From Escherichia phage PBM-1, in sequence record PV029540: DNA of 64,000 bases. The stretch is one strand, 5' to 3'. A program made the position numbers and the translations under genes. The notes under the pieces were generated by a model. That model searched no databases, was not told the DNA's origin, and was given only the letters and a program-made list of their open reading frames with translations. Shown piece after piece: positions 1-51,612 of the stretch (its first letter is position 1; each line of letters starts with the position of its first letter).

Positions 1-56
1 ACTGGCCATTCACACTTTTCGCAGTGGGCATTTTTAAGAATACTTGTTTGGCTCAT
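1..56 (-). CDS. hypothetical protein, N-terminal part only (continues past window start)
   Basis: Minus-strand ATG near 56 overlapping the stop of the upstream gene (ATGA coupling); truncated by the window edge. Confidence 0.25.
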   Translation of the reverse strand, partial: MSQTSILKNAHCEKCEWP

Positions 57-265
57 AACCATGTAACCTTTAAACAATATTCTTCTACGTGTTGTTTACG
101 ACCTTTCTTATCAATAAAGGTATATTCAACGAATGTTCCAATATAGTCTTTATCTACACCATGTGGACTATTAATTGGGCATTTAGTACGGCAAATGCGT
201 TCCCATTGACGAATAATTTCCACTTTGTTTTTAGGATCAAACGGATGCGGGTAATGTACTTTCAT
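53..265 (-). CDS. hypothetical protein (70 aa)
   Basis: ORF in the co-directional early gene chain; overlaps neighbour stop. Confidence 0.45.
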   Translation of the reverse strand: MKVHYPHPFDPKNKVEIIRQWERICRTKCPINSPHGVDKDYIGTFVEYTFIDKKGRKQHVEEYCLKVTWL

Positions 266-716
266 AATCCACCACTATTAAATCAATATCAGGAGTAAAC
301 ATGTCGATTAATTTAGAAACCTTATCCCAATCGCCGCCAGCAATACCGCAACCTATACGTGGAATGTAAATTACTGGTTTAAACAAAAGGGTTTCTGCCT
401 GTAGATTTAATTCTATCATGCAGTTTACTAAAGCACCATAATCAAGATTAGGACCCGGTTCGTATTGCGTATACAGGTTATAGCATATACCAAATCCCGT
501 AGGACTATGTTTAAAAACAATAGACATATCGCCTAATTTATCACGAGAACCGTACTCGGTAGTGGTTTTATCTATTTCTAAAATTTTGGGATAGGCTCTT
601 GCTAATTGACCCGCTACGCCAGAGCCCATTGTGTGGAAGCAATTGCACCCGTGCGCAATAATATTACCTTGAAGAAATAGGGCGACAATATCGCCCTTGA
701 TATATTTTACAATCAT
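237..716 (-). CDS. macro-domain-like protein (putative ADP-ribose binding/processing)
   Basis: 159 aa; N-terminal GDI..AHGCNC..GSGVAGQ and C-terminal IPRIGCGIAGGDW motifs resemble the two glycine-rich macro-domain motifs (compare E. coli YmdB); by-eye call. Confidence 0.55.
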   Translation of the reverse strand: MIVKYIKGDIVALFLQGNIIAHGCNCFHTMGSGVAGQLARAYPKILEIDKTTTEYGSRDKLGDMSIVFKHSPTGFGICYNLYTQYEPGPNLDYGALVNCMIELNLQAETLLFKPVIYIPRIGCGIAGGDWDKVSKLIDMFTPDIDLIVVDYESTLPASV

Positions 717-1060
717 CTAGTACTCAATCCTCGATTATAAGAATCTACTAAACGGTCAACCATTGAATGACAAGCGGCTTTATCTTTCTCCTCCGCAACT
801 GAACATTCTAAGGTATTCCACTTTTTAGCATATCGTTTTAACAATGTATCATTTTTGTATCTGCTTGATTTATCTCTTTCTCCGTCTTTATATGCATATA
901 TTAATTTCTGCGCAAATTCAGCTTGGCATGCTTTATTTTTCCCACAATAATCCGCGGCAGTACGGTTTACATACTCTCTAATTTCAGTATATGATGTATC
1001 TGCTAACGCAGAAGCAGAAAATGAAATTAATCCTATACATAAAACCAAAATTTTAGTCAT
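713..1060 (-). CDS. predicted secreted/periplasmic protein
   Basis: 115 aa; hydrophobic N-terminus MTKILVLCIGLISFSASALA looks like a cleavable signal peptide; 4 Cys in mature part. Confidence 0.55.
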   Translation of the reverse strand: MTKILVLCIGLISFSASALADTSYTEIREYVNRTAADYCGKNKACQAEFAQKLIYAYKDGERDKSSRYKNDTLLKRYAKKWNTLECSVAEEKDKAACHSMVDRLVDSYNRGLSTR

Positions 1061-1598
1061 TTACTATTTCCAAAAGTTTATTATTTTTAAGGTAATTAGC
1101 CTTTTCTAGGACTTCAGAAGCATATTTAGAACCTGCTTTAACATTCCATCCCGAATTATAAGAGGATATCGCCTTTCTTATATCGCCCTTATGTATATTT
1201 AACCAATAAGAAAGTTCAATGTACGCCCAGGAAGCTGAATTGGACCGTTTATTCAACATTCTTTTTATTTCAGCATCGGTCATATTATAACCAAGTTCCT
1301 TAACTCTTGCTCGCATAGTAGGCAAATAATTTTGGAACATTCCATAGGCATGATGCTTTGGTTTAGATTTTAAATTAACTCCGGCAGAGCTTTCTTGCCA
1401 CAAAATAGCAGCCATTATATGACCCAATCCGCTCTTATGGATGTTTTTGTGTGTTTTATATTTTCCATCCTTAGAAAATTGTTCCCCGAATTGATATGCG
1501 TAGCGCATGTTATCGAGTTGGACATTACTGAAAGTATGCTCGGAGCTATGCGCCATCATTGAAATGGCCAATAGACCAGCGAGTAGTGCTTTTCTCAT
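1053..1598 (-). CDS. predicted periplasmic lytic transglycosylase-like protein
   Basis: 181 aa; signal-peptide-like N-terminus MRKALLAGLLAISMMAHS; SLT-like motifs ILWQESS and YGMFQ. Confidence 0.55.
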   Translation of the reverse strand: MRKALLAGLLAISMMAHSSEHTFSNVQLDNMRYAYQFGEQFSKDGKYKTHKNIHKSGLGHIMAAILWQESSAGVNLKSKPKHHAYGMFQNYLPTMRARVKELGYNMTDAEIKRMLNKRSNSASWAYIELSYWLNIHKGDIRKAISSYNSGWNVKAGSKYASEVLEKANYLKNNKLLEIVND

Positions 1599-1605
1599 GC
1601 TTACC

Positions 1606-2067
1606 TCATTGAGTTTTAATTACTGCTTTAGAAGCCTTTCCTGGTAAACGACGACTGTTAATAATTGCCATCCTACATTGAAGTGACGGGTCTTTGAACT
1701 TCGCATTAGGTTTACAAACTGTAAATCCAAGCCAAAGATTTCCATCTGTGATTTCTAAACGTCCAGGACGGTATTCAACCCCATCAATAAAATCCTCATC
1801 AATGTCAGGACGCGGAGGCATACTCAGGAATTCATTAACTTCTAAAACATGGTCTTTTATTTTGTGGAATAATTCAAAAACATATGTCTCATCAATCTCC
1901 CGTTGAATTGCACGATCAAGAAGATGTTGAGAATATTTTAGATGAAACGATGAGACCCCTGCTGCTTTTGATGCCTCACGAATCTCATTGTTAATTTGAC
2001 GAAACTCCGACTCAAAGTGACGACGAAGCTTATTTCGACGGATAAAAACTTCTGTGTTGATAGTCAT
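1606..2067 (-). CDS. regB: RegB sequence-specific endoribonuclease
   Basis: 153 aa, near-identical to remembered T4 RegB (MTINTEVFIRRNKLRRHFESEFRQ...). Confidence 0.9.
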   Translation of the reverse strand: MTINTEVFIRRNKLRRHFESEFRQINNEIREASKAAGVSSFHLKYSQHLLDRAIQREIDETYVFELFHKIKDHVLEVNEFLSMPPRPDIDEDFIDGVEYRPGRLEITDGNLWLGFTVCKPNAKFKDPSLQCRMAIINSRRLPGKASKAVIKTQ

Positions 2068-2126
2068 GTTATTCTCCTCTTAACTGATAGAAAAATTATA
2101 CCACAGTCAAGAGGAAAAGTAAACAG

Positions 2127-2405
2127 TTATTCTTTAAATCTAATCAATTTATTCATAGACTTTGAAACTTCTGCACGGACCTCATGTAAGTTTTTAAGCT
2201 GTTCAAGACGCTGCTCATAGTAAGCAATTTCATCTTCTTCGAGACAGTCCTGTGAATCTTCTTTAAGATAACGTGCATAGTCCTGGAAAGCTTTACGGAC
2301 TACTTCTTGGAAGTCATCAAGACTTTGAATTTTCTTAGGAGCAACAGATACACGACGAGGGGCAGTATAATACTCATAACCAAACCCTGCGCTTAATTGA
2401 GCCAT
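2127..2405 (-). CDS. hypothetical protein (92 aa from second Met)
   Basis: ORF 2127-2447; internal ATG at 2405 overlaps upstream stop (TAATG coupling). Confidence 0.5.
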
Positions 2406-2707
2406 TAATATTTTTCCTCTGGTTGGAACACAGCACGACAAGCCCACATACTAGCTTCTTTGAGTTTCGTTTTAGCAATAGTTAACTGATCGAGGCTTTC
2501 AGCATAATTCTTTGCGAATTCGTAGTCTTCACAATTATCTAGTGCTTCCCAGAATTCATCATATAAAGCGTCAAAGATAAGTCCTAAACGAACTTCAGCG
2601 TCTTTGATAGCATTCACTTTATCGATTTTCTCTTCAGTGTGCGGCTTATAACCTTTAATATCTTCAATCATATTTGACTTCCTCGCCCGTTCCCAAATCA
2701 TATTCAA
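2405..2707 (-). CDS. hypothetical protein (100 aa)
   Basis: ORF in co-directional early chain. Confidence 0.5.
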
Positions 2708-2885
2708 CTAAACGAATAGGTTCATAAATGCCATATCCCTGAACAGAAATTTCTGTCGTAGGATAAATTCCACTAATATCACCCATATTCCACGCTTCAT
2801 TAAATTGCTGTTCGCCTGAATTACTAAACCATTCTGCGAAAGCATTTAACACATCTTTAGAACCTTCAATAATTATCTTTGCCAT
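2664..2885 (-). CDS. hypothetical protein (73 aa)
   Basis: ORF in co-directional early chain. Confidence 0.45.
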   Translation of the reverse strand: MAKIIIEGSKDVLNAFAEWFSNSGEQQFNEAWNMGDISGIYPTTEISVQGYGIYEPIRLVEYDLGTGEEVKYD

Positions 2886-3259
2886 TACAAGCTCTCAGTA
2901 AAGGTACGAGCGATAACGTCGCGCTGCTGTTCCGGAGTCAGAGAGTTAAAGCGAACTGCATAACCGGATACACGGATGGTCAGCTGCGGATATTTTTCCG
3001 GATGCTTAACTGCATCTTCCAGCGTTTCACGACGCAGAACGTTAACGTTCAAGTGTTGACCACCTTCAATTTTAACTGTAGGTTGTGTTTCAATTTCAAT
3101 TTCACGGGCATGCAAACCATAGAAAATTTCTGGGTCTACAAAAGAGTCCTCTTTAAAGGTTTTAGAGACAATAATTCGTGCTTGAATACCATCTTCAAAA
3201 TAAATAGTACCTTTATGTGTGCCTTCAAGAATTTGATATGCTTTCATATACCCTCTCAA
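2885..3259 (-). CDS. GrcA/YfiD-like autonomous glycyl radical cofactor
   Basis: 124 aa; C-terminal ~60 aa ([63 protein letters not shown]) matches E. coli GrcA glycine-radical domain; T4 is known to encode such a protein (Y06I). Confidence 0.85.
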
Positions 3260-3585
3260 TTAGAAAATAAATTTATCCAAGATTGCTCTTTAATTAAAAA
3301 TGGCTCAGAATCATATGCCATCAAACTTTGGGTGATTAGTCCTTTAAAAGGTCCATCAATAAATTCCATGGTAAAATATGGAATTTTATTCATTAATCTT
3401 GCATTAGGAGCAGTGCACAAAACTCTGCATCCTTTGAATACGCCTTTTTGTAATTTGTATTGCTTAGGATAAAATTCGCTCAAGACGTTGTTATTTGCCA
3501 AAATTTCAAAATGATTCACCAACTTATTTTTAATAGTTTTTGGTGAAAAATAAAGATATTCGAAAAGCTGTGTGTCTGTCATCAT
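3256..3585 (-). CDS. hypothetical protein
   Basis: ORF 3256-3636; likely start at the MM pair coupled to upstream stop. Confidence 0.5.
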
Positions 3586-4124
3586 TGCATTCCGATTACG
3601 AAAAACTGCGGACGAGTAATACCACCGATGCAGCATTTACTATTGCAACAGTATTGTACAGTTTCAATATGAATATCGTAAATTTTATCCATATCAGGAG
3701 ATTTAACAGGCTCATCGATTATATACAGAATTCGAGAAAGCGTTAAACCTCTGAACTTGCTACCTCTATTACCAACAAAACTACGGACAGAATCAGTAAA
3801 TAAACGGAATCGAATATCATCGCTAGAATAACGAGAAAATTCTTTTTTAATGTGGTCCGCAGAAATTTTAGCGTAAGATGAAGTATTAGAAAGAACAATA
3901 ACTGTTCCACCGTCATACAACCAATTAGCAGCAAAGTTAGTCACAGCAATTGATTTACCGGATTGACGTCCACCATCTAGTCGAAGTGTGCAGTATTCTT
4001 TAAATAAATGTGGCGAATCAGGTACATAAAATCCACTATTACAAATTTCTTCTACTCTAGCATCAGAATGGTGTGTAAAAACATTCATCAGGGATAGATA
4101 AGGACCAGTTAAAAATGTTCTCAT
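3582..4124 (-). CDS. hypothetical P-loop NTPase-like protein
   Basis: ORF 3582-4172; Walker A-like GGRQSGKS and Walker B-like ILYIIDEP; start set at Met17 to avoid overlap with denV. Confidence 0.45.
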   Translation of the reverse strand: MRTFLTGPYLSLMNVFTHHSDARVEEICNSGFYVPDSPHLFKEYCTLRLDGGRQSGKSIAVTNFAANWLYDGGTVIVLSNTSSYAKISADHIKKEFSRYSSDDIRFRLFTDSVRSFVGNRGSKFRGLTLSRILYIIDEPVKSPDMDKIYDIHIETVQYCCNSKCCIGGITRPQFFVIGMQ

Positions 4125-5648: not shown

Positions 5649-6089
5649 TTAAAAGAGGTTGTTCATTATTCTGTAAAGTGAAGGACCCATCACATATTGC
5701 CACTGAGTACGAGGAATAAGAGCAAAAGCATCCATCTCTGGAATCATAACGCCATCTTTATTTTCAAAATAAGACTCGCAATGGCAATTTCTAAACATCT
5801 CATGCTCTACTGGAATCGTATAATAAAATAACTGTAAGTCTTTATTACTAGAATATTTAAATACACCTAAGTCTTCTAGAAGGTCTGGATTATAATTGCT
5901 AAAGCCAGTCTCTTCTAAGCATTCTCTTCGTGCTGCATCTAGTGCGCTTAAATCAGAACTTTCTACACGCCCCTTTGGAATATCCCAGCGATGTGCCATC
6001 ATTCCATGTTTACGAGAACCAGTAACTCGTCCCATAAATAAATCTTTATCTTCTGTCATAAAGATAATACCAGCTGATAGTGTTTTCAT
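5649..6089 (-). CDS. nudE: Nudix hydrolase
   Basis: ORF 5649-6104; start at Met6 with AGGAAA SD and ATGA overlap with upstream stop; Nudix-box-like RECLEETG; position next to e. Confidence 0.8.
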   Translation of the reverse strand: MKTLSAGIIFMTEDKDLFMGRVTGSRKHGMMAHRWDIPKGRVESSDLSALDAARRECLEETGFSNYNPDLLEDLGVFKYSSNKDLQLFYYTIPVEHEMFRNCHCESYFENKDGVMIPEMDAFALIPRTQWQYVMGPSLYRIMNNLF

Positions 6090-6574
6090 TTTAATTTCCT
6101 GCATTCAGTGATAAAATTATTTAAATTTTGAGCATATTTCTTTTCATCAAAAATCTTTTGTTGTCTGCGCATCCGCCATGGCATTTCAATGAACATGTAC
6201 CATATTCCTGATAATATTGATGCTGTAAAAATATTAACAAGTATGGTTAAAAGAATCCAATCTCCTATTCTGTCCATTGGATTTTTTATAAAAAAGTAAA
6301 ATACGAATGATGACACAGGAAGACTAATGATATACCACAGAATCATAATCTTATCTGTGAACCATTCAGCATTCGTTAACTTAGCACGACCATTATGAAT
6401 ACACACGAATTTATCATCTGTTACAGTAGATGGCTTAACTGCTTGATATCCCATTCTAAACTCCCTAATTAATCGTTTCTTTGTATCTTCAGAACAGCCG
6501 CTCCAGTCAACTCTATCAACTGAAATGCCATCGTCCCCATCATCTAAATCATACCAGTGAGTTTTTAAAATCAT
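6086..6574 (-). CDS. hypothetical membrane protein
   Basis: 162 aa; hydrophobic segments; ATGA coupling at both ends. Confidence 0.55.
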   Translation of the reverse strand: MILKTHWYDLDDGDDGISVDRVDWSGCSEDTKKRLIREFRMGYQAVKPSTVTDDKFVCIHNGRAKLTNAEWFTDKIMILWYIISLPVSSFVFYFFIKNPMDRIGDWILLTILVNIFTASILSGIWYMFIEMPWRMRRQQKIFDEKKYAQNLNNFITECRKLK

Positions 6575-11577: not shown

Positions 11578-11653
11578 TGGTCGAGGCAGTAGGGATCGAA
11601 CCTACGACCTAGGACTTAGAAGGTCCTTGCTCTTCCTTCTGAGCTATGCCCCG
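11578..11653 (-). tRNA. tRNA-Arg (anticodon TCT)
   Basis: Manual cloverleaf: acceptor CGGGGCA/TGCCTCG, anticodon stem AGGAC/GTCCT, loop CTTCTAA, T-loop TTCGATC, encoded CCA. Confidence 0.75.
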
Positions 11654-11657
11654 TAAT

Positions 11658-11733
11658 TGGGGTGACCGATGGGAGTCGAACCCATGACTACGAGAATCAC
11701 AATCTCGAGTTCTACCAACTGAACTACGGCCAC
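11658..11733 (-). tRNA. tRNA-His (anticodon GTG)
   Basis: Manual cloverleaf: anticodon stem CGAGA/TCTCG, loop TTGTGAT, T-arm ATGGG-TTCGACT-CCCAT, encoded CCA. Confidence 0.7.
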
Positions 11734-11846
11734 ATTAATACCTACTCCAACAATCAAGATGTCTTCACACGAAATTAAGAGAAGAGTGATCAGTTCAACC
11801 CTATAATCGCGTCAAGTAGATATTAATGTGACAGTTGTCACAAATT

Positions 11847-11922
11847 TGGCGGACGTGATAGGATTCGAACCTATAACCAATCGCTTAACAGGCGATCGCT
11901 CTGCCATTGAGCTACACATCCA
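11847..11922 (-). tRNA. tRNA-Asn (anticodon GTT)
   Basis: Manual cloverleaf: anticodon stem ATCGC/GCGAT, loop CTGTTAA, T-arm ATAGG-TTCGAAT-CCTAT, encoded CCA. Confidence 0.7.
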
Positions 11923-11926
11923 AATT

Positions 11927-12012
11927 GGTGGGGAGTGATGGAGTCGAACCACCCGAGTCGCAATGACAATGGATTTACAGTCCACACCGCTACCTCTACG
12001 GGATAACTCCCC
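11927..12012 (-). tRNA. tRNA-Tyr (anticodon GTA), long variable arm
   Basis: Manual cloverleaf: acceptor GGGGAGT/ACTCCCC, anticodon loop CTGTAAA, ~86 nt. Confidence 0.7.
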
Positions 12013-12018
12013 TTAATT

Positions 12019-12093
12019 TGGTGGCCCTGGGTGGAATTGAACCACCATCTGGCGATTATGAGTCGCTTGCTTGAACCTTCCAGCTACAGGGCC
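12019..12093 (-). tRNA. tRNA-Met or Ile2 (anticodon CAT)
   Basis: Manual cloverleaf: acceptor GGCCCTG/CAGGGCC, anticodon loop CTCATAA; not initiator-like. Confidence 0.65.
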
Positions 12094-12094
12094 T

Positions 12095-12170
12095 TGGTGC
12101 TGATTGACGGAATCGAACCGCCGACCTTCTCATTACAAGTGAGTTGCTCTACCTACTGAGCTAAATCAGC
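12095..12170 (-). tRNA. tRNA-Thr (anticodon TGT)
   Basis: Manual cloverleaf: acceptor GCTGATT/AATCAGC, anticodon loop CTTGTAA. Confidence 0.7.
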
Positions 12171-12175
12171 AAAAC

Positions 12176-12265
12176 TGGCGGAGGCGATAGGATTTGAACC
12201 TATGAGTCGCCGGAGCGACTGCCGGTTTTCAAGACCGGTGCATTAAACCACTCTGCCACGCCTCC
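12176..12265 (-). tRNA. tRNA-Ser (anticodon TGA), long variable arm
   Basis: Manual cloverleaf: anticodon stem CCGGT/ACCGG, loop CTTGAAA, ~90 nt. Confidence 0.7.
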
Positions 12266-12271
12266 AAATAT

Positions 12272-12880
12272 TTATATATTGTTAATTTGATTTAGAATTC
12301 TTTTTGCTTGAGTATGACTTACGCCAATATGCTTAGCATATTTAGATAATTCGCCTCGTTTAGAAAAATCATATAATTTAGAAATTTCTATTCTTCTTTT
12401 TCTTTCATCCGCAGAAACTTTTGCTTCGTTTGCTTTTGCTATTTTACGTTTAGCTTCTTGAGAATGAGTTTTACCAGCAAAGCCATTCTTCATTAATCCA
12501 TTTGAAGACCATCCTTTTAATTTTCCGTTAGAATGTGCCTTTTTAACACCCAATGAAATTAATTCACGTTGCTGATCTGTCATAGGATAATTATTTATAT
12601 GATCCCATCCACCTTCACCACCAAGTTTTAAATTATACACATCTGATCTATTTAAAAACTCTTCTGTGACAATATTTTTCTCGGCTTCAAGCATAGATTC
12701 TTTATCATCAAAATACTCTAATATTTCTTTAGAAAAATTTTCTATACCATACTTATCTTGGGCTCTTTTTAATAATTTACCGGAACCCATATATCCATCA
12801 TCTAAATTTTCGGTAGAATGCACACCAATATAAATTTTATTATTAATTTTATTTGTTATTTTATAAAGATAAAAATGCAT
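12272..12880 (-). CDS. GIY-YIG homing endonuclease (SegB-like)
   Basis: ORF 12272-12922; GIY-YIG motif YLYKITNKINNKIYIGVHS near N-terminus if started at Met15; embedded in tRNA cluster as segB is in T4. Confidence 0.75.
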   Translation of the reverse strand: MHFYLYKITNKINNKIYIGVHSTENLDDGYMGSGKLLKRAQDKYGIENFSKEILEYFDDKESMLEAEKNIVTEEFLNRSDVYNLKLGGEGGWDHINNYPMTDQQRELISLGVKKAHSNGKLKGWSSNGLMKNGFAGKTHSQEAKRKIAKANEAKVSADERKRRIEISKLYDFSKRGELSKYAKHIGVSHTQAKRILNQINNI

Positions 12881-12926
12881 ATCAGTCCCTAATAAAGAAC
12901 TGAGCGTCTCACGACGAGTCATAAAT

Positions 12927-12981
<55 letters not shown>

Positions 12982-12995
12982 GCCATTATACGATA

Positions 12996-13082
12996 TCCGC
13001 AAATTTGGTGCGAGAAGTGGGACTCGAACCCACAAGGAAATCATTCCGCAGCATTTTAAGTGCTGTGCCTTTACCAATTTGA
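12996..13082 (-). tRNA. tRNA-Leu (anticodon TAA), long variable arm
   Basis: Manual cloverleaf: acceptor GCGAGAA/TTCTCGC, anticodon stem CAGCA/TGCTG, loop CTTAAAA, T-arm GTGGG-TTCGAGT-CCCAC; lies under the spurious plus ORF 12926-13225. Confidence 0.7.
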
Positions 13083-13098
13083 CCATTCTCGCGCTATA

Positions 13099-15349: not shown

Positions 15350-16099
<750 letters not shown>

Positions 16100-28107: not shown

Positions 28108-28974
28108 ATGTTCATTCAAGAACCAAAGAAATTGATTGATACCGGCGAAATTGGTAACGCTTCTACTGGTGATATCTTATTCGACGGTGGTAATAAAATT
28201 AATAGTGATTTTAACGCAATTTATAATGCGTTTGGCGATCAGCGCAAAATGGCAGTAGCAAATGGCACTGGAGCAAATGGCCAAATTATCCATGCTACTG
28301 GATATTATCAAAAGCACTCTATAGCAGAGTACGCAACTCCAGTAAAAGTTGGCACTAGACATGATATTGATACCTCTACTGTAGGTGTTAAAGTTATCAT
28401 TGAAAAAGGCGAACTTGGCGACTGTGTTGAATTTATTAACTCAAATGGATCAATATCAGTTACTAATCCTTTAACAATTCAGGCTATTGATTCAATCAAA
28501 GGTGTTTCGGGTAATTTGGTAGTAACTAGCCCATATAGTAAAGTTACTTTACGATGTATTTCATCTGATAATTCTACATCTGTTTGGAATTATTCTATTG
28601 AAAGTATGTTTGGACAAAAGGAATCACCAGCTGAAGGTACATGGAATATTTCTACATCTGGATCAGTTGACATTCCACTATTTCACCGTACTGAATATAA
28701 CATGGCTAAATTGTTAGTTACGTGCCAATCGATAGATGGAAGAAAAATTAAAACAGCAGAAATAAATATTCTTGTGGATAATGTTAATTCAGAGGTCATT
28801 TCTTCTGAATATGCTGTCATGCGAGTTGGGAATGAAACTGAAGAAGACGAAATCGCTAATATTGCATTTAGTATTAAAACAAATTATGTAACAGCGACTA
28901 TAAGTTCTTCAACTGTCGGTATGAGAGCAGCAGTTAAAGTTATCGCTACGCAGAAAATCGGGGTGGCTCAATAA
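28108..28974 (+). CDS. 9: gp9 baseplate protein (long tail fibre socket)
   Basis: 288 aa as in T4; terminator and late promoter upstream. Confidence 0.9.
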   Translation: MFIQEPKKLIDTGEIGNASTGDILFDGGNKINSDFNAIYNAFGDQRKMAVANGTGANGQIIHATGYYQKHSIAEYATPVKVGTRHDIDTSTVGVKVIIEKGELGDCVEFINSNGSISVTNPLTIQAIDSIKGVSGNLVVTSPYSKVTLRCISSDNSTSVWNYSIESMFGQKESPAEGTWNISTSGSVDIPLFHRTEYNMAKLLVTCQSIDGRKIKTAEINILVDNVNSEVISSEYAVMRVGNETEEDEIANIAFSIKTNYVTATISSSTVGMRAAVKVIATQKIGVAQ

Positions 28975-30779
28975 TGAAACAAAATATTAATATCGGTAAT
29001 GTTGTTGATGATGGTACCGGTGACTACCTGCGTAAAGGTGGTATAAAAATAAATGAAAACTTTGATGAACTTTATTATGAACTTGGCGATGGAGATGTTC
29101 CATATTCAGCCGGTGCCTGGAAAACTTATAATGCTTCATCCGGTCAAACATTAAAAGCTAAGTGGGGAAAATCATACGCTATTAATACCTCTTCTGGAAG
29201 AGTAACTTTACAACTTCCTAAAGGAACTGTTAATGATTATAATAAAGTAATTAGAGCTAGGGATGTATTTGCAACATGGAACATTAATCCAGTTACTTTA
29301 GTAGCTGCTTCTGGGGATACAATTAAAGGGTCGTCATCGTCAGTTGAAATTAATATTCAATTTAGTGATTTAGAGCTTGTTTATTGCGCTCCAGGACGTT
29401 GGGAGTATGTCAAAAACAAGCAAATTGATAAAATTATTAGTTCAGATATTAGTAATGTAGCTCGCAAAGAATTTTTAGTAGAAGTTCAAGGACAAACTGA
29501 CTTTTTAGATGTTTTCCATGGAACTAGTTATAATGTCAATAACATCAGAGTAAAACACCGCGGTAACGAATTATATTACGGCGATGTATTTAGTGAAAAC
29601 AGTGACTTTGGCTCTCCGGGGGAAAATGAAGGAGAATTAATTCCTCTTGATGGATTTAATATTAGGTTAAGACAGCCTTGTAATATTGGCGACACTGTTC
29701 AAATTGAAACGTTTATGGATGGTGTATCACAATGGAGAAGTTCATATACAAGACGCCAAATAAAAGTATTAGATTCAAAACTAACATCAAAGACTTCTTT
29801 AGAAGGAAGCATTTATGTTACTGATTTATCGGCGATGAAATCAATTCCATTCTCTGCGTTTGGATTAATTCCTGGCGAACCCATTAATCCTAATTCTCTC
29901 GAGGTTCGTTTTAATGGAATTTTACAGCAACAGGCTGGAACAGCTGGGTATCCTCTGTTTTTGTGCGAAGGCGCTAATTCAGATACGCAAGAAGGATGTA
30001 TATCTCTTGGTGGCGAATGGAAAGAATCAAACACAGATTATTCTATAGAATATGAAGAGGGAAAACCTACAAGTCTTTTATTTGATAGAAAATTTGAATC
30101 AGGCGATATAATCGTTATAACGTGGTTCAATAATGATTTAGGAACTCTTTTAGAAAAAGATGACATCATTGAATTAACGGATGACCGTTATGTTAGTAAA
30201 GGATCATCTACCGAAGTTACTGGCGATGTAGCCTTAACAGATTTTGATAAAATTGGTTGGCCAAATGTTGAAAAAGTTGATTCTTATACTAGAACGTATA
30301 ATTCAATATCATCTATTTTCGATAGCATTTATCCTGTAGGTTCAATTTATGAAAATGCTATAAACCCAAATAATCCGGTGACTTATATGGGGTTTGGTTC
30401 GTGGAAATTATTTGGTAAAGGACAAGTTTTAGTAGGATGGAATGATGATGTTACGGATCCAAACTTTGCTTTAAACAATAATGATTTAGATTCTAGTGGA
30501 AATCCTTCACACACTGCCGGTGGAACAGTTGGAACAACATCAGTAACGCTTGAAACCGCAAATCTTCCTGCGACTAAAACTGATGAAAGAGTTTTAATTG
30601 AAGATGAAAATGGATCAGTTATTATTGGAGGTTGTCAATATGACCCAGATGAAACTGGTCCTATATATACAAAATATCGTGAAGACTATGCAACAACAAA
30701 CTCTTCACATACTCCTCCTACTAATATTAGTAATATTCAACCGTCTATTACTGTATACCGTTGGATAAGGATTGCATAA
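28974..30779 (+). CDS. 10: gp10 baseplate wedge protein
   Basis: 601 aa; position. Confidence 0.9.
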
Positions 30780-31438
30780 TGAGTTTACTTAATAATAAAG
30801 CGGGAGTTATTTCCCGCTTAGCGGATTTTCTTGGTTTTAGAACTAAGAAAAATGATATTTCGATTATGAATAATCAGCCAGTAGGCGCTGTAACAATTTC
30901 ACAAATATCAAAAGGTTTTTATGATTCAAATGTAGAATCTGCTATCAATGACGTTAGAAATATGGCAGAGCAACCGGTTGGAGCTGTATTAGTTAATATA
31001 AGCGGCGTATCTCCTACTGGCGTGCAACAAACCGACTATTGGTCATTTGAAGGAACTGTTACTGATACTTCAGTCAAATCAGGTGACCCAGTTATTGTTA
31101 ACATGTTTGGTATTCCAGTTAAAGCTACTAATGGAATGACTTCAATTGAATTTACTAGTGCCGTTAGAATAGCTCTACAGGAAATGGTTGTAAAATTTAT
31201 TGCAATTGATTCATTTGAAGACCATCCTACCATAGGAAATAAAATACAAGTTAAGTATTTAGATAACCAAGAACATATCTTAGAACAATACTCTGATAAA
31301 GGAATTACTTTCAAACAGGAAATAATTTCTCCTTCTAAACCTGGGTATGGAACTTGGCAATTATTAGGTGCGCAAACTGTTACGCTAGATAGTCACACAC
31401 AACCTACAGTATTTTATTATTTTGAGAGAGTAGCATGA
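30779..31438 (+). CDS. 11: gp11 baseplate wedge protein (short tail fibre attachment)
   Basis: ORF 30761-31438 starts at TTG; true ATG at Met7 gives 219 aa ([20 protein letters not shown]...). Confidence 0.9.
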
Positions 31439-32985
31439 GTAACAATACATATCAGCACGTATCAAATGAATCAAAGTATGTTAAATTCGATCCTACTGGA
31501 TCGAATTTTCCTGGCACTGTTACGACAGTACAGTCTGCATTATCAAAAATAAGTAATATCGGCGTAAATGGTATTCCTGATGCAACTATGGAAGTTAAAG
31601 GAATAGCAATGATTGCGTCAGAACAAGAGGTTTTAGATGGAACTAATAACTCTAAAATCGTTACACCAGCTACATTAGCAACAAGATTATTGTATCCAAA
31701 TGCTACTGAAACTAAATATGGTTTAACGCGTTATTCAACAAATGAAGAAACATTAAAAGGCTCAGATAATAATTCATCAATAACACCACAAAAACTGAAA
31801 TACCACACTGACGATGTGTTCAAAAATAGATATTCGTCTGAGTCATCAAACGGGGTTATTAAAATATCATCTACACCTGCAGCTTTGGCTGGAGTTGATG
31901 ATACTACTGCGATGACTCCGCTAAAAACCCAAAAACTTGCAATAAAATTAATTTCGCAAATAGCTCCTTCAGAAGACACTGCAACAGAATCGGTGAGAGG
32001 AGTAGTTCAATTATCTACTGTTGCACAAATTCGTCAAGGAACTCTCCGCGAAGGATATGCAATTTCCCCGTATACCTTTATGAATTCTGTTGCAACACAT
32101 GAATATAAAGGTGTTATACGCCTAGGAACGCAGACTGAAATTAATAATAATTTGGGTGGTGTTGCAGTAACAGGTGAAACACTAAATGGTCGAGGAGCTA
32201 CCGGTTCTATGCGTGGAGTAGTTAAATTAACGACGCAAGCCGGTATTGCCCCTGAAGGTGATAGCTCTGGAGCATTAGCATGGAACGCAGATGTAATTAA
32301 TACTCGTGGTGGACAAACTATTAATGGTTCTTTAAATTTAGACCATCTTACAGCAAATGGAATTTGGTCACGCGGTGGAATGTGGAAAAATGGCGATCAA
32401 CCTGTTGCCACTGAAAGATATGCGTCCGAAAGGGTTCCAGTTGGAACTATTATGATGTTTGCGGGTGATTCAGCACCTCCAGGTTGGATTATGTGTCACG
32501 GTGGAACCGTGTCAGGTGACCAATTTCCTGATTATAGAAACGTAGTTGGATCAAGATTTGGTGGTGATTGGAATAATCCTGGTATTCCTGATATGCGAGG
32601 TCTTTTCGTCAGAGGAGCCGGTACTGGCGGTCATATTTTAAATCAACGAGGACAAGATGGTTATGGAAAGGATAGACTTGGTGTAGGATGTGACGGAATG
32701 CATGTTGGTGGTGTCCAGGCACAACAAATGTCATACCATAAACACGCCGGTGGTTGGGGAGAATATAACAGAAGTGAAGGCCCATTTGGCGCGTCAGTTT
32801 ATCAAGGATATCTTGGAACTAGAAAATATTCCGACTGGGATAATGCTTCATACTTCACTAATGATGGATTTGAATTAGGTGGACCGAGAGATGCTCATGG
32901 TACACTTAATCGTGAAGGATTAATTGGTTATGAAACTAGACCATGGAATATATCATTAAACTATATTATTAAAATTCATTACTAA
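31435..32985 (+). CDS. 12: gp12 short tail fibre
   Basis: 516 aa; N-terminus [26 protein letters not shown]. Confidence 0.9.
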
Positions 32986-32994
32986 GGATTACAA

Positions 32995-34452
32995 ATGATT
33001 GAATTAAAAGAGTTACCTTTTGTTGATAGCGCTCCTGACGAAGGTCAAGAGCGTATTTCATGGATTAAAAATGGTGAAGAAATATTAGGAGCTAGTACTA
33101 AGTATGGAAATGATGGATCAATGAATAGACCTATTGTTTCCGTGTTTAAAAATGTCGAAGTTCTTGATGAAAATGTGGGAATTCTTAAAACTGCCATTGA
33201 AACATCACAGAAAGATATTAAAACAATTCAAGGAGTTTTAGATGTATCAGGAGATATAGAAGCACTAGCACAGATCAGTGTTAATAAAAATGACATATCA
33301 AATTTAAAGACACTTACTAATGAACACACTGATATATTAACTGGAACTAATAATACAGTTGACAAAATTATTGCTGATATAGGTCCATTTAATGATGAAG
33401 AAAACTCTGTTTACAGAACAATTAGAAATGATTTATTGTGGATTAAACAGGAATTAGGACAATATTCTGGTCAAGACATTAACGGTCTTCCTGTTGTTGG
33501 TAATGCTAGCACAGGAATGAAACACAGAATAATAACAAATAGTACGTTATTATCTTCACAAGGCATTCGTTTAAGCGAATTAGAAACTAAATTTACTGAA
33601 TCTGACGTAGGATCATTAACTGTTGAAGTTGGTAAATTACGCGATGAACTTGGTAATAAACCGGTAGATTTTGGGCCAAATATTTATAATAGATTAAACA
33701 CCATAGATGATAAACAAACTTTAATAAATTCTGATATAGCAGAAATTAAATCTTCTATTGGATACCCAGAAAATGTTTCTATAATAACAGAAATTAATAA
33801 TAACAAAAGTAGCATTGAAGCTATTAATAATGAATTAAATCAGAGTGAAGGTGTTAAACAGCGCTTAACGGCTATTGAAACTTCTATAGGTTCAGATGAT
33901 ATTCCTTCTAGTATTAAAGGAAAAATTAAAAATCACACAACTTCTATTGAGTCTTTAAATGGAATTGTCGGTGAAAACACTTCGTCTGGTTTAAGAGCAA
34001 ATGTTTCGTGGTTAAATCAAATTGTTGGAACTGACTCCAGCGGAGGACAACCGTCTCCTTCTGGATCTCTATTAAATAGAGTTTCAGTGATTGAAGGAGA
34101 AGTTTCAGTTTTAAACAATAATGTTCAAAATATACAAGTTGAAATAGGAAATAATAGAACAGGAATTAAAGGTCAAGTTATTGAACTTACTTCACTTATA
34201 AATGGAAATAATCCTGACGGATCAACTGTTGAAGAACGAGGATTAACTAATTCTGTAAAAACGAATGAAACTAACATTGCGGCAGTCACACAGGAAGTAA
34301 ATACAGTTAAAGAAAATATATCCTCTTTACAGAGTAGTGTTCAAGATCTACAAGAAGCAGGTTATATTCCTGAAGCTCCAAAAGATGGCCAAGCTTACGT
34401 TCGTAAAGACGGCGAATGGGTATTGCTTTCTACCTTTTTATCACCAGCATAA
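32995..34452 (+). CDS. wac: fibritin (whisker antigen control)
   Basis: 485 aa; coiled coil; C-terminal foldon [27 protein letters not shown]. Confidence 0.95.
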
Positions 34453-44971: not shown

Positions 44972-45603
44972 TGAATGAACCCCAATTACTAATTGAAACT
45001 TGGGGTCAACCTGGCGAAATTATTGATGGTGTGCCAATGCTTGAATCTCATGATGGAAAAGACCTCGGTTTAAAACCTGGTTTATACATCGAAGGAATAT
45101 TCATGCAAGCGGAAGTCGTCAATAGAAATAAACGTCTTTATCCAAAACGCATATTAGAAAAAGCGGTAAAAGACTATATCAATGAGCAAGTTTTAACAAA
45201 ACAAGCTCTCGGAGAATTAAATCATCCTCCACGCGCTAAAGTTGACCCGATGCAAGCCGCTATCATTATAGAAGATATGTGGTGGAAAGGAAATGACGTA
45301 TACGGACGAGCTCGTGTTATTGAAGGTGACCATGGTCCTGGAGATAAATTAGCAGCTAATATTCGTGCCGGATGGATTCCAGGAGTTTCTTCTCGTGGAT
45401 TAGGTTCATTGACTGACACAAATAAAGGTTATCGTATCGTAAACGAAGGATTCAAATTAACTGTAGGTGTTGATGCAGTATGGGGTCCAAGTGCTCCAGA
45501 TGCATGGGTAACCGTGCTTTTCCGCGGTTTTTCTTATAATAATAAGCGAAATCACGACGCCAGTATCCAGATTTCGCGTTATCAATACACAATACAATTT
45601 TAG
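44971..45603 (+). CDS. 21: gp21 prohead core protease, C-terminus replaced by read-through into antisense rnh
   Basis: Position and size fit T4 gp21 through about aa 181 (~45513); the remaining 29 aa are the reverse-complement reading of rnh codons. Confidence 0.7.
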   Translation: MNEPQLLIETWGQPGEIIDGVPMLESHDGKDLGLKPGLYIEGIFMQAEVVNRNKRLYPKRILEKAVKDYINEQVLTKQALGELNHPPRAKVDPMQAAIIIEDMWWKGNDVYGRARVIEGDHGPGDKLAANIRAGWIPGVSSRGLGSLTDTNKGYRIVNEGFKLTVGVDAVWGPSAPDAWVTVLFRGFSYNNKRNHDASIQISRYQYTIQF

Positions 45604-45808
45604 TGTATCCAAGAGTTTTTGCTTTTTTAACATTGAACTTAATTGAGTTCAATATCAAATGACGAACCATTGATAAATTAATTTTTTCTTTATCTGGGAA
45701 GTTTACCAGAGCAGTTGAAAGCGCAATCTGACTAAAGTCAATTAAGCAAATTCCTTCTTTGTAATCTTCATCCAGCATCATTTCTAAATCCATATGAACC
45801 TCGTTCAA
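45452..45808 (-). pseudogene. rnh: RNase H (rnh) 5' fragment: first ~94 codons only
   Basis: From Met6 (45793) matches T4 RNase H MDLEMMLDEDYKEGICLIDFSQ...KKNRGKAR, then diverges at ~45512 into antisense of gene 21; full rnh is 305 aa. Confidence 0.85.
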
Positions 45809-45819
45809 TTAGTGAGATT

Positions 45820-45865
45820 TCTATTATATACTATCTAAATCTTAAAGTAAACAAGTATAAATACT
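45820..45865 (-). promoter_or_regulatory. early promoter for rnh
   Basis: Minus strand GTTTAC-N16/17-TATATAAT upstream of the rnh start. Confidence 0.5.
45856..45863 (+). promoter_or_regulatory. late promoter (TATAAATA) for gene 34
   Basis: Exact TATAAATA ~35 nt upstream of the gene 34 ATG. Confidence 0.6.
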
Positions 45866-45897
45866 TATTATTGAAAACACAATAGGAGCCCGGGAGA

Positions 45898-48800
45898 ATG
45901 GCCGAGATTAAAAGAAAGTTCAGAGCAGAAGATGGTCTGGACGCAGGTGGCGATAAAATAATCAACGTAGCTTTAGCTGATCGTACCGTAGGAACTGACG
46001 GTGTTAACGTTGATTACTTAATTCAAGAAAACACAGTTCAACAATATGATCCAACTCGTGGATATTTAAAAGATTTTGTAATCATTTATAATAATCGTTT
46101 TTGGGCAGCAACGGATAATATTCCAAAACCTGCTGGAAGTTTTAATAGAATTCGTTGGAAAGCATTACGTACTGATGCTGTATATACAACCGTATCATCT
46201 GGACCGTATCAATTAAAATCCGGAGAAGCAATTTCAGTAGATACATCAGTTGGTAATGACATTGAGTTTACTTTACCACCTTCTCCGCTCGATGGAGAAA
46301 CAGTAATAATTCAAGATATCGGTGGAAAACCTGGTATAAATCAGGTTAAAATAAGTTCTTCAAATCAGAGCATTGTTAATTTTAGAGGTGAACAAGTACG
46401 TTCAGTTTTAATGACTCATCCAAAGTCACAGATGATATTCATTTTTAATAATCGTTTGTGGCAAATGTATGTTGCTGATTATAGCAGAGAAGCTGCAATT
46501 GTTACTCCATCGACTGCATATCAAGCACAATCTAATGATTTTATTGTGCGTAGATTTACTTCCGCAGCGCCGATTAATATTAAACTTCCGAGATTTGCTA
46601 ATCATGGCGATATTATTAATTTCGTTGATTTAGATAAATTAAATCCACTTTATCATACAATTGTCACGACATATGATGAAACAACTTCAGTACAAGAAGT
46701 TGGAACTCATTCCATTGAAGGCCGTACATCTATTGATGGTTTCTTGATGTATGATGATAATGAGAAATTATGGAGATTATTTGACGGGGATAGTAAAGCA
46801 CGTTTACGTGTTATAACAACTAATTCTAATATTCGTCCAAACGAAGAAGTTATGGTATTTAGTGCGAATAATGGAACAACTCAAACAATTGAACTTCAGC
46901 TTCCGACCGATATTTCCATTGGCGATACTGTTAAAATTTCCATGAATTACATGAGAAAAGGCCAAACAGTTAAAATCAAAGCTGCCGGTGAAGATAAAAT
47001 TGCTTCTTCAGTTCAATTGCTGCAATTCCCAAAACGTTCAGAATATCCACCTGAAGCTGAATGGGTGACTGTTCAAGAATTAGTTTTTAACGGTGAAACT
47101 AATTATGTTCCAGTTTTACAACTTGCTTATATCGAAGATTCTGACGGAAAATACTGGGTTGTACAGCAAAACGTTCCAACAGTTGAAAGAGTCGATTCTT
47201 TAAATAATTCTACTAGAGCAAGATTAGGCGTAATTGCTTTAGCTACACAAGCTCAAGCTAATGCTGATTTAGAAAATTCTCCACAAAAAGAATTGGCAAT
47301 TACTCCAGAAACGTTAGCTAATCGTACTGCTACAGAAACTCGCAGAGGTATCGCAAGAATAGCAACTACTGCTCAAGTTAACCAGGATACTACATTCTCT
47401 TTTGCTGATGATATTATCATCACTCCTAAAAAGCTGAATGAAAGAACTGCTACAGAAACTCGCAGAGGTGTTGCTGAAATTGCTACGCAACAAGAAACTA
47501 ATGCAGGAACCGATGATACTACAATCATCACTCCTAAAAAGCTTCAAGCTCGTCAAGGTTCTGAATCATTATCTGGTATTGTAACCTTTGTATCTACTGC
47601 AGGTGCTACTCCAGCTTCTAGCCGTGAATTAAATGGTACGAATGTTTATAATAAAAACACTAATAATTTAGTTGTTTCACCTAAAGCTTTAGATCAGTAT
47701 AAAGCTACTCCAACACAACAAGGTGCAGTAATTTTAGCAGTTGAAAGTGAAGTAATTGCTGGACAGAGTCAAGAAGGATGGGCAAATGCGGTTGTAACGC
47801 CAGAAACGTTACATAAAAAGACATCAACTGATGCAAGAATTGGTTTAATTGAAATTGCTACGCAAAGTGAAGTTAATACAGGAACTGATTATACTCGCGC
47901 AGTCACTCCTAAAACTTTAAATGACCGTAAAGCAACTGAAAGTTTAAGTGGTATAGCTGAAATTGCTACGCAAGTTGAATTCGACGCAGGCGTCGACGAT
48001 ACTCGTATCTCTACACCATTAAAAATTAAAACCAGATTTAATAGTACTGATCGTACTTCTGTTGTTGCTCTATCTGGATTAGTTGAATCAGGAACTCTCT
48101 GGGACCATTATACCCTTAATATTCTTGAAGCAAATGAGACACAGCGTGGTACACTTCGTGTGGCTACACAAGTTGAATCTGCTGCAGGAATATTAGATAA
48201 TGTTCTAATAACTCCTAAAAAGCTTTTAGGTACTAAATCTACTGAAGCGCAAGAAGGCGTTATTAAAGTTGCAACTCAATCTGAAACTGTAGCTGGAACG
48301 TCAGCAAATACTGCTGTATCTCCAAAAAATTTAAAATGGATTGTGCAGAGCGAACCTACTTGGGCAGCAACTACTTTGGTAAGAGGTTTTGTTAAAACTT
48401 CATCTGGTTCAATTACATTCGTTGGTAATGATACAGTTGGTTCAACGCAGCCATTAGACTTGTACGAGAAAAATAGCTATGCAGTATCACCATATGAATT
48501 AAACCGTGTATTAGCAAATTATTTGCCGTTAAAAGCAAAAGCTGCTGACGCAAATTTATTAGATGGTCTAGATTCATCTCAGTTCATTCGTAGGGATATT
48601 GCCCAGACAGTTAATGGTTCACTAACCTTAACCAAACAAACGAACCTGAGTGCCCCTCTTGTATCATCTAGTACTGCTACGTTTGGTGGATCAGTTTCAG
48701 CAAATAGTACACTAACTATTTCTAATACTGGAACGGCAACTCAATTAATTTTTGAGAAAGGACCTCAAACTGGAACAAACCCGACTCAAACAATGACTGT

Positions 48801-49767
48801 AAAAGTGTGGGGAAATCAATTTAGCGGGGAGTCAGACACAACACGTTCTACTGTATTTGAAGTTAGTGATGAAACTTCTAGTCATTTTTATTCTCAGCGT
48901 AATAAAGCTGGTAATATAACATTTAATATCAACGGTACAGTAACACCGATAAATGTGAATGCTTCAGGAACATTGAATGCGAATGGCGTTGCAACATTTG
49001 GTAATTCAGTCACTGCAACTGGTGAAATTATTTCTCGAAGCGCAAATGCTTTCCGTGCTATTAATGGAAATTACGGTTTCATTATTCGTAATGACGGGTC
49101 AGTAACGAATTTTATGCTTACTGCATCAGGCAATCAAACTGGTGGATTTAATGGATTGCGTCCATTGTCCATTAATAATCAATCTGGGCAGGTCACAATT
49201 GGTGAAAGCTTGATCATTGCTAAAGGTGCTACTATAAATTCAGGTGGTTTAACTGTTAACTCGAGAATTCGTTCTCAAGGTGTTAAAACATCTGATTTAT
49301 ATACCCGTGCGCCGACATCTGATACTGTAGGATTCTGGTCAATCGATATTAATGATTCAGCCACTTATAACCAGTTCCCGGGTTATTTTAAAATGGTTGA
49401 AAAAACTAATGAAGTTACTGGACTTCCATACTTAGAACGTGGCGAAGAAGTTAAATCTCCTGGTACATTGACTCAGTTTGGTAACACACTTGATTCACTT
49501 TACCAAGATTGGATTACTTATCCAACGACTCCAGAAGCACGTACCACTCGCTGGACACGTACATGGCAAAAAACTAAAAACTCTTGGTCAAGTTTTGTTC
49601 AGGTATTTGATGGAGGTAACCCTCCTCAACCTTCGGATATAGGAGCAATTCCATCTGATAATGGAATAATAGGTAATCTTACTATTCGTGATTTCTTACG
49701 AATTGGTAATGTTCGCATTATTCCTGACCCAGTGAATAAAACTGTTAAATTTGAATGGGTTGAATAA
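45898..49767 (+). CDS. 34: gp34 long tail fibre proximal subunit
   Basis: 1289 aa as in T4; late promoter upstream. Confidence 0.95.
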   Translation: MAEIKRKFRAEDGLDAGGDKIINVALADRTVGTDGVNVDYLIQENTVQQYDPTRGYLKDFVIIYNNRFWAATDNIPKPAGSFNRIRWKALRTDAVYTTVSSGPYQLKSGEAISVDTSVGNDIEFTLPPSPLDGETVIIQDIGGKPGINQVKISSSNQSIVNFRGEQVRSVLMTHPKSQMIFIFNNRLWQMYVADYSREAAIVTPSTAYQAQSNDFIVRRFTSAAPINIKLPRFANHGDIINFVDLDKLNPLYHTIVTTYDETTSVQEVGTHSIEGRTSIDGFLMYDDNEKLWRLFDGDSKARLRVITTNSNIRPNEEVMVFSANNGTTQTIELQLPTDISIGDTVKISMNYMRKGQTVKIKAAGEDKIASSVQLLQFPKRSEYPPEAEWVTVQELVFNGETNYVPVLQLAYIEDSDGKYWVVQQNVPTVERVDSLNNSTRARLGVIALATQAQANADLENSPQKELAITPETLANRTATETRRGIARIATTAQVNQDTTFSFADDIIITPKKLNERTATETRRGVAEIATQQETNAGTDDTTIITPKKLQARQGSESLSGIVTFVSTAGATPASSRELNGTNVYNKNTNNLVVSPKALDQYKATPTQQGAVILAVESEVIAGQSQEGWANAVVTPETLHKKTSTDARIGLIEIATQSEVNTGTDYTRAVTPKTLNDRKATESLSGIAEIATQVEFDAGVDDTRISTPLKIKTRFNSTDRTSVVALSGLVESGTLWDHYTLNILEANETQRGTLRVATQVESAAGILDNVLITPKKLLGTKSTEAQEGVIKVATQSETVAGTSANTAVSPKNLKWIVQSEPTWAATTLVRGFVKTSSGSITFVGNDTVGSTQPLDLYEKNSYAVSPYELNRVLANYLPLKAKAADANLLDGLDSSQFIRRDIAQTVNGSLTLTKQTNLSAPLVSSSTATFGGSVSANSTLTISNTGTATQLIFEKGPQTGTNPTQTMTVKVWGNQFSGESDTTRSTVFEVSDETSSHFYSQRNKAGNITFNINGTVTPINVNASGTLNANGVATFGNSVTATGEIISRSANAFRAINGNYGFIIRNDGSVTNFMLTASGNQTGGFNGLRPLSINNQSGQVTIGESLIIAKGATINSGGLTVNSRIRSQGVKTSDLYTRAPTSDTVGFWSIDINDSATYNQFPGYFKMVEKTNEVTGLPYLERGEEVKSPGTLTQFGNTLDSLYQDWITYPTTPEARTTRWTRTWQKTKNSWSSFVQVFDGGNPPQPSDIGAIPSDNGIIGNLTIRDFLRIGNVRIIPDPVNKTVKFEWVE

Positions 49768-49775
49768 GAGGTATT

Positions 49776-50891: not shown

Positions 50892-50897
50892 ACTGAG

Positions 50898-50920
50898 GGA
50901 GCCTTCGGGTTCCCTTTTTC
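50898..50920 (+). terminator. rho-independent terminator after gene 35
   Basis: GGGAGCC-TTCG-GGTTCCC hairpin followed by TTTTT. Confidence 0.6.
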
Positions 50921-50923
50921 TTT

Positions 50924-50931
50924 ATAAATAA
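50924..50931 (+). promoter_or_regulatory. late promoter (TATAAATA) for gene 36
   Basis: Exact TATAAATA after the gene 35 terminator. Confidence 0.6.
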
Positions 50932-50953
50932 TATTAAAATAAAGGGGCATATA

Positions 50954-51604: not shown

Positions 51605-51612
51605 GAGGACTT

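Follow-up and report, generated by a model that had tools for sequence, protein, structure and literature searches.

A diverged PBM-1 ortholog of the T4 macrodomain gene tk.4 (adfM), with a predicted Gln-type active site and a likely role against DarTG2

The interval between vs and tk.3 in Escherichia phage PBM-1 (PV029540) encodes a small stand-alone protein, and the question raised by this locus is to which family the protein belongs and upon which ADP-ribose-containing molecule it acts. The window in which it was analyzed is a stretch of 64,000 nt of that phage genome, and all positions below refer to it (Table 1). The tk-vs-regB gene cluster of T4 is transcribed early, and it is on this basis that the locus is placed in the early region. 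Macro domains are encoded by about 41% of myoviruses (PMC9503650), and one reaction of such domains is known from DarG, the macrodomain of which undoes the ADP-ribosylation of thymidine in single-stranded DNA (ssDNA) by DarT2 (PMC9411070).

Table 1. Positions of the tk.4/adfM ortholog, its motifs and its boundaries in the window.
Feature	Position	Strand	Description	Basis
tk.4/adfM ortholog, CDS	237..716	minus	159-aa stand-alone macrodomain protein	ORF, Pfam Macro, synteny
Overlap of vs stop codon and tk.4 start codon	713..716	minus	ATGA	sequence and ORF list
Overlap of tk.4 3' end and tk.3 homolog start	237..265	minus	29 nt	ORFs
tk.3 homolog	53-265	minus	70 aa, DUF7202	
Motif 1, first glycine-rich ADP-ribose-binding loop	609..653	minus	HGCNCFHTMGSGVAG, aa 22-36	invariant columns in 75-sequence alignment
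Motif 2, second glycine-rich diphosphate-binding loop	327..362	minus	PRIGCGIAGGDW, aa 119-130	
T83-Q84	465..470	minus	Q84 invariant, at the catalytic lysine position of TARG1 (K84) and DarG (K80)	
Cassette diverged from T4	218..605	.	55% DNA identity	pairwise alignment and binned identities

The identity of the gene follows from its surroundings and its sequence. PBM-1 is a T4-like phage (Tequatrovirus): positions 1-3500 of the window are 98-99% identical to many Tequatrovirus genomes, among them that of BW-1 (98.5%), which carries the same tk.4 allele, and the genes on the minus strand are arranged in the order vs.6, vs.5, vs.4, vs.3, regB, vs.1, vs, tk.4 ortholog and tk.3, an order from vs.6 to tk.3 that is common to T4, T2 and BW-1. 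The T4 gene in the slot between vs and tk.3 is tk.4 (NP_049723, 155 aa), which is annotated as 'phosphatase; contains A1pp phosphatase motif', A1pp being the older name of the macro domain. The two proteins align without gaps over 155 aa with 58% amino acid identity (E 1e-70), and the PBM-1 gene is, by its position, an ortholog of T4 tk.4/adfM, of which it represents a diverged allele. The initial annotation, which knew of no characterized macro-domain protein at this position in T4, was wrong on this point, as tk.4 with its A1pp annotation lies there and has since been named AdfM. Nor does the novelty that it implied survive, because the A1pp motif of T4 tk.4 had been recognized and a preprint has assigned the gene a counter-defence role; the gene is already known.

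Evidence that the protein is a macrodomain comes from motifs, sequence profiles and predicted structure. The two glycine-rich motifs that had been noted as arranged like those of macro domains are indeed present on the minus strand of 237-716, with the glycine loops at aa 30-36 and 121-128 and with the spacing seen in macro domains, and this two-motif arrangement is far beyond chance. In the alignment of 75 homologs that also served as the family profile, H22, G23, N25, C26, G33 and A35 of motif 1 are invariant, and these are retained in both the PBM-1 and T4 alleles together with the family invariants D49, N80, Y82, Q84, P119 and W130. Motif 2 (PRIGCGIAGGDW) is nearly identical to the corresponding segments of SCO6735 (PRIGCGLAGGTW) and BT1257 (PRIGCGLAGGKW). 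The protein matches Pfam Macro (PF01661) over profile positions 2-117 of 118 (E 1.3e-7; 32 bits, with 22 needed to pass the gathering threshold) and PHROG 335 with E 1e-71, and when used alone as a phmmer query it matches BT1257, Poa1p, SCO6735, Mtb DarG and TARG1. With the family profile, the solved structures matched were BT1257 (E 6e-19), TARG1 (2e-16), SCO6735 (6e-15), Poa1p (1e-14) and those of DarG (7e-12 and 3.5e-10).

The AlphaFold2 (AF2) model built from the family alignment (pLDDT 93.9, pTM 0.89) has alternating strands and helices, with disorder confined to the last four residues. When this model was compared with the PDB using Foldseek, TARG1, BT1257, Poa1p, DarG and SCO6735 came first, all with a probability of 1.00, the TM-scores being 0.66-0.74 when normalized to the query and 0.66-0.83 when normalized to the target; there were 162 PDB matches with E <= 0.001, and each of the 50 listed is either a macrodomain or an enzyme whose design started from the TTHA0132 macrodomain scaffold. 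Profile searches and structure prediction, both of which had been suggested as checks, gave a macro domain, and the macro-domain call stands because the profile match exceeds its cut-off and the predicted fold is macro. The nearest solved relatives (TARG1, DarG, SCO6735, BT1257 and Poa1p) and the shared P-R/x-I/L-G-x-G...W loop are those of the TARG1-like (ALC1-like) class, and the protein is a macrodomain protein of this class. As judged from the conserved motifs, ADP-ribose is most likely bound through both glycine loops.

One end of the protein resembles an enzyme of small molecules, and this counts against the removal of DarT2-added ADP-ribose from DNA: the N-terminal motif is most like that of yeast Poa1p, an ADP-ribose-1''-phosphate phosphatase. 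The phmmer match to Poa1p (6lfu, E 1.6e-9) is best in the HxCNC...G.G motif at the N-terminal end, where H22 falls at Poa1p H23 and T29 at S30 by position in that alignment, the C-terminal half being weak, and H23 and S30 are the residues picked for the Poa1p mutant structures 6lfs and 6lft. Public annotations of such proteins likewise read 'phosphatase', 'Poa1p-like' or 'O-acetyl-ADP-ribose deacetylase', and by tradition also 'RNase III inhibitor/YmdB'. It could accordingly be proposed that the protein acts on small ADP-ribose derivatives and not on nucleic acids, either as a Poa1p-like phosphatase or as an O-acetyl-ADP-ribose deacetylase, but we regard this as unlikely. The names are transferred by homology and are not tested activities, the O-acetyl-ADP-ribose deacetylase models of NCBIfam reach no more than 11-16 bits where more than 250 would be required, and the one known phenotype of the ortholog is DarTG2 sensitivity. 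To our knowledge, moreover, RNA repair in T4 (Pnkp, Rnl1) does not yield ADP-ribose-1''-phosphate.

The residues of the putative active site point elsewhere. In the alignment of the family profile with TARG1, the catalytic Lys84 of the human enzyme corresponds to the invariant Gln84 and its catalytic Asp125 to Ala126. When 40 family members were aligned by L-INS-i with T4 Tk.4, PhiKZ gp104 and PDB sequences (TARG1, Mtb and Taq DarG, BT1257), Gln84 of the PBM-1 protein, T4 Tk.4 and BT1257 shared a column with TARG1 K84, with K80 of Mtb and Taq DarG (FPTK) and with the lysine of PhiKZ gp104, and Asn25 was aligned to the Asn that is conserved in DarG, gp104 and BT1257. Default MAFFT and hhalign place the gp104 lysine two columns away from Q84, whereas L-INS-i pairs T-K with T-Q; the latter alignment appears to be the better one, although it is not proof.

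A glutamine at this position is known from SCO6735, in which Gln85 replaces the lysine, the Q85A mutant is inactive and the N27S mutant is nearly so, and for which water-mediated hydrolysis has been proposed with DarT-made thymidine-ADPr DNA as substrate (PMC9411070). The same residue pattern is present in the PBM-1 protein as Q84, N25 and G124 of loop 2. In a PDB search with aa 55-159, the loop-2 segment alone of SCO6735 was aligned and not its Gln85 region, and because a direct alignment to SCO6735 was not obtained there, Q84 is equated with Q85 by way of the TARG1, BT1257 and DarG alignments and the published structural alignment. One element of SCO6735 is lacking in the Tk.4 family, namely the extended lysine-bearing mobile loop after the Gln, as the family segment (QYEPGPN-LDY) is six residues shorter than that of BT1257 and has no lysines. 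The lysines of the SCO6735 mobile loop have been linked to DNA processivity (PMC9411070), and their absence from the family counts against the same function. By these alignments the active site of the Tk.4 family is nonetheless of the Gln type of SCO6735 and BT1257, and not of the DarG type.

The function of the T4 ortholog was recently revealed by genetics. When a T4 transposon library was screened by HIDEN-SEQ on a DarTG2 host, tk.4 was the single significant gene, a clean tk.4 knockout rendered T4 DarTG2-sensitive, and adfM (anti-DarT factor Macrodomain) was adopted as the new gene name; that ADP-ribose is taken off the DNA enzymatically 'seems likely' to these authors, whose evidence in T4 is genetic (bioRxiv 10.1101/2025.11.20.689424). 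Three roles had been offered for the PBM-1 protein in the initial annotation, and the reversal of a DarT-type host defence is the one that gains support from this screen and knockout of the ortholog (bioRxiv 10.1101/2025.11.20.689424), while the degradation of immune signals and the modulation of Alt, ModA and ModB find none. We infer that the PBM-1 allele, at 58% identity, shares the activity of the T4 allele and that the mechanism is catalysis and not DarT binding. Counting against the same function is the difference from T4 Tk.4 at 42% of residues, loop 2 included. On balance it is likely that the protein catalytically removes DarT2-added ADP-ribose from phage DNA by SCO6735-like chemistry.

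In such a mechanism, the protein would be made from the compact tk-vs-regB gene cluster and its two glycine loops would hold the ADP-ribose carried by thymidines of single-stranded phage DNA. Gln84, positioned by Asn25, would orient the distal ribose, and, with no nucleophilic lysine, water would cleave the N-glycosidic bond between ribose and base. The replication-blocking marks placed by the DarT2 of DarTG2 would thereby be lost, restoring replicable DNA and releasing free ADP-ribose. Elsewhere in the window a nudE homolog (5652-6104, minus strand) is 98% identical to T4 nudE, whose product is described in the T4 record as a Nudix hydrolase active on ADP-ribose, and by this activity NudE could consume the ADP-ribose freed by the macrodomain.

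That DNA is the sole or main substrate may not hold, because enzymes of the TARG1-like class can also use proteins and uracil-ADPr RNA as substrates. The main substrates might instead be ADP-ribosylated proteins or RNA, with the phage protein reversing the effects of host ADP-ribosyltransferase (ART) toxins directed at RNA or protein or tuning the phage enzymes Alt, ModA and ModB. T-even phages do encode these three ARTs, but their products carry arginine-linked ADP-ribose, which, as far as we know, TARG1-like macrodomains do not cleave. It has been shown that SCO6735 and TARG1 de-modify proteins too (PMC9411070), and uracil-ADPr on RNA is cleaved by TARG1, DarG and SCO6735. CmdTAC, a system that ADP-ribosylates mRNA, strongly blocks T4 in spite of its tk.4, and protein or RNA as the main substrate is considered improbable. 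A role of Tk.4 as a general eraser of RNA ADP-ribosylation, to which the CmdTAC system might have been linked, is ruled out because of this block.

Protection could also be achieved without catalysis, the protein serving as a sponge or binder of ADP-ribose-derived immune signals of the Thoeris type or blocking DarT2 directly. In vitro, DarT is inhibited even by catalytically dead forms of SCO6735, DarG and TARG1 (PMC9411070), and the sponge Acb2 (vs.4) and further anti-defence genes are encoded nearby. The residues required for catalysis in SCO6735 (the Asn, the Gln and the loop-2 Gly) are nevertheless invariant across the Tk.4 family, which favours an enzyme over a pure binder; in addition, the PBM-1 protein lacks a DarT-binding C-terminal domain, and Foldseek revealed no structural kinship with the sponges Tad1 and Tad2. 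A purely non-catalytic mode of action is therefore very unlikely, and the preferred reading is still that of an ADP-ribose-removing enzyme.

If the protein acts on the marks of DarT2, it might be asked whether it is simply a DarG without its partner. DarG was the sole PADLOC match (positions 3-144 of 329) and the top of three weak NCBIfam matches, all of which are far below their cut-offs, the DarG equivalog model NF048014 giving 27.7 bits against 250 over positions 2-142 of 338. The C-terminal DarT-binding domain is absent from the 159-aa protein, and in place of the catalytic Lys80 of DarG (FPTK) both the profile and the L-INS-i alignments have Gln84. No darT is adjacent to the gene in the window, its neighbours being vs and tk.3, or beside homologs in the three neighbourhoods examined (one bacterial and two phage-like). 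Reading the protein as an 'orphan DarG antitoxin' is ruled out, as three defining features of DarG are lacking, these being a full-length score with the C-terminal domain, Lys80 and an adjacent darT.

The same distinction affects the name AdfM. It is also used for gp104 of PhiKZ, which in vitro clears ADP-ribose from DNA modified by DarT2 and which shields PhiKZ (2026 Cell Reports paper). This protein (L004:22518-23003) matches Mtb DarG with E 9e-25, yet it is only about 23% identical to the PBM-1 protein, and for this reason the name AdfM covers two separate macrodomain lineages, the Gln-type T4 Tk.4 and the Lys-type, DarG-like PhiKZ gp104. To call the T4-type AdfM an orphan DarG is mechanistically loose, because its site is the SCO6735-like Gln/Asn and not the lysine of DarG.

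The PBM-1 gene also differs from its T4 counterpart in a manner that sets it apart from its neighbours. DNA identity to T4 is 94% in tk.3 (53-217), falls in the cassette of roughly 390 nt listed in Table 1, and returns to 85% at the 5' end of tk.4 (606-716, 111 nt) and 97% in vs (717-1060). At the protein level, vs, vs.1 and regB are 99% and tk.3 is 91% identical to T4, and of all T4 genes for which the collinear part of the window contains a homolog, tk.4 is the most diverged. The cassette is sharply bounded and allelic, as is typical of T-even mosaicism. At least 312 phage records contain the PBM-1-type allele at >=90% protein identity, at least 224 contain the T4-type allele at >=90%, with at least 159 more at 80-90%, and intermediate alleles of 73-82% identity occur in other T-even relatives. 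The two classes coexist in Tequatroviruses and are about equally common. An arms race might have driven them apart toward different DarT2 variants or substrates (uracil-ADPr RNA vs thymidine-ADPr DNA), such that the classes are not interchangeable; we give this little credence, and if true, the ~390-nt cassette would be a swappable host-range determinant. Because it differs at 42% of residues from the T4 allele that was tested, the PBM-1 allele is in any case a useful natural variant for probing the specificity of protection against DarT2.

The open reading frame of the gene runs on the minus strand from an ATG at 714-716 to a stop at 237-239. The ATGA shared with vs is present in T4 too and suggests tight packing and, probably, translational coupling of vs and tk.4. 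The overlap with tk.3 is longer than in T4, where it is just 4 nt, and the C-terminal tail concerned (residues 156-159) has a pLDDT below 50 in the AF2 model, is disordered, and is also found in P0007, a relative with 76% identity. Scans of window positions 1-3600 gave no excess of promoters (12 sites against 13.0 in shuffled sequence) or of terminators (2 against 2.3). Within the 5' part of tk.4, a near-perfect inverted repeat of 19 nt with an 8-bp stem, AGGGCGATATTGTCGCCCT (679-697), lies inside a segment showing 100% identity to T4 (681-720) and was flagged as terminator-like on both strands; the regional count of such sites is not above that of shuffled sequence.

Several neighbours of the gene are of interest in themselves. 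The vs.4 homolog (2408-2671, minus strand) matches Pfam Acb2_Tad1_hairpin (E 5e-20), a cyclic-nucleotide sponge, and the 57B homolog (15406-15861, minus strand), 99% identical to T4, is an anti-defence gene of the same early block, which we take to be Acb1. The vs.6 homolog (2888-3247, minus strand), 98% identical to T4, matches Pfam Gly_radical (E 2e-18), a glycyl-radical domain like that of GrcA/YfiD, a spare part for pyruvate formate-lyase. Among more distant genes, denV is just 78% identical to T4, and the baseplate-periphery and fibre genes (28974-34449 and scattered) include gp10 (85%), gp11 (66%), gp12 (63%) and wac (78%), set among neighbours at 98-100%. No homologs of T4 ipIII, ipI, e.7 or 5.3 were found within the window. 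The tRNA cluster (11578-13092) has nine tRNAs according to ARAGORN (Arg, His, Asn, Tyr, Met, Thr, Ser, Gly and Leu) and differs from the T4 set (Arg, Ile, Thr, Ser, Pro, Gly, Leu and Gln), with a partial match to a segB-like homing endonuclease amid the tRNAs at 12530-12880 (82% over 117 aa).

The window is collinear with T4 from tk.3 through gene 21, up to about 45513 (junction ~45500-45530). There gene 21 breaks off at about aa 181 and is directly followed by rnh and the long-tail-fibre genes 34-37 (45514-53000), whose place in other Tequatroviruses is some 45 kb distant. T4 genes 22, 23, 24 and rnlB have no match anywhere in the window, and not one of the 554 phage records that matched extends across the junction, which is probably a misassembly or concatenation, or else a large deletion in a non-viable genome.

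The value of the PBM-1 gene as a discovery is small, given a domain common in myoviruses, a T4 annotation that dates from the genome record and a counter-defence role assigned in 2025. What is added here is the structure of the allele, the assignment of a Gln-type site and the collision in the naming of AdfM.

Comparison with known systems places the protein closest to T4 Tk.4, with which it shares the vs - tk.4 - tk.3 slot, the length class, full-length homology, the first 14 residues and every residue invariant in the family, N25 and Q84 among them. The two differ in loop 2, which is GAGIGKGNW in T4 and GCGIAGGDW, the family consensus, in PBM-1, and in the four additional C-terminal residues of the PBM-1 copy that give rise to the 29-nt overlap with tk.3. 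Like yeast Poa1p (6LFQ-6LFU), the protein has the macro fold and the N-terminal motif (IHSCNCNGSWGGGIAYQLA vs AHGCNCFHTMGSGVAGQLA), but the yeast enzyme is an ADP-ribose-1''-phosphate phosphatase of the tRNA-splicing pathway and its C-terminal half aligns weakly (9.9 bits). Human TARG1/OARD1 (4J5S) is the top Foldseek match (E 6.6e-10, TM 0.71-0.83), has the PRIGCG loop and the equivalent of His22, and also strips thymidine-ADPr from DNA, while its Lys84/Asp125 dyad is replaced by Gln84/Ala126 and it has a Ser at the position of Asn25.

DarG (Mtb 5M3I, Taq 5M31) and PhiKZ gp104 have the same fold, class and conserved Asn, and both act on thymidine-ADPr in ssDNA and neutralize DarT2; they differ from the Tk.4 family in having Lys80 in an FPTK motif where the family has YTQ, and DarG has in addition a domain at its C-terminus that binds DarT and, next to its own gene, darT. 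SCO6735 of Streptomyces coelicolor (PDB 5E3B) and BT1257 of Bacteroides (2FG1/2AFC) show about 25% identity to the PBM-1 protein, and the 'mobile loop' of the phage family is shorter and devoid of lysines; SCO6735 is, moreover, a cellular protein that shields from DarT toxicity and not a phage counter-defence. These two are nevertheless the best or near-best PDB sequence matches, and like the phage protein they are stand-alone, TARG1-like macrodomains of about 150-180 aa in which a Gln with an Asn partner takes the place of the Lys, and their PRIGCG[LI]AGGxW loop is nearly identical.
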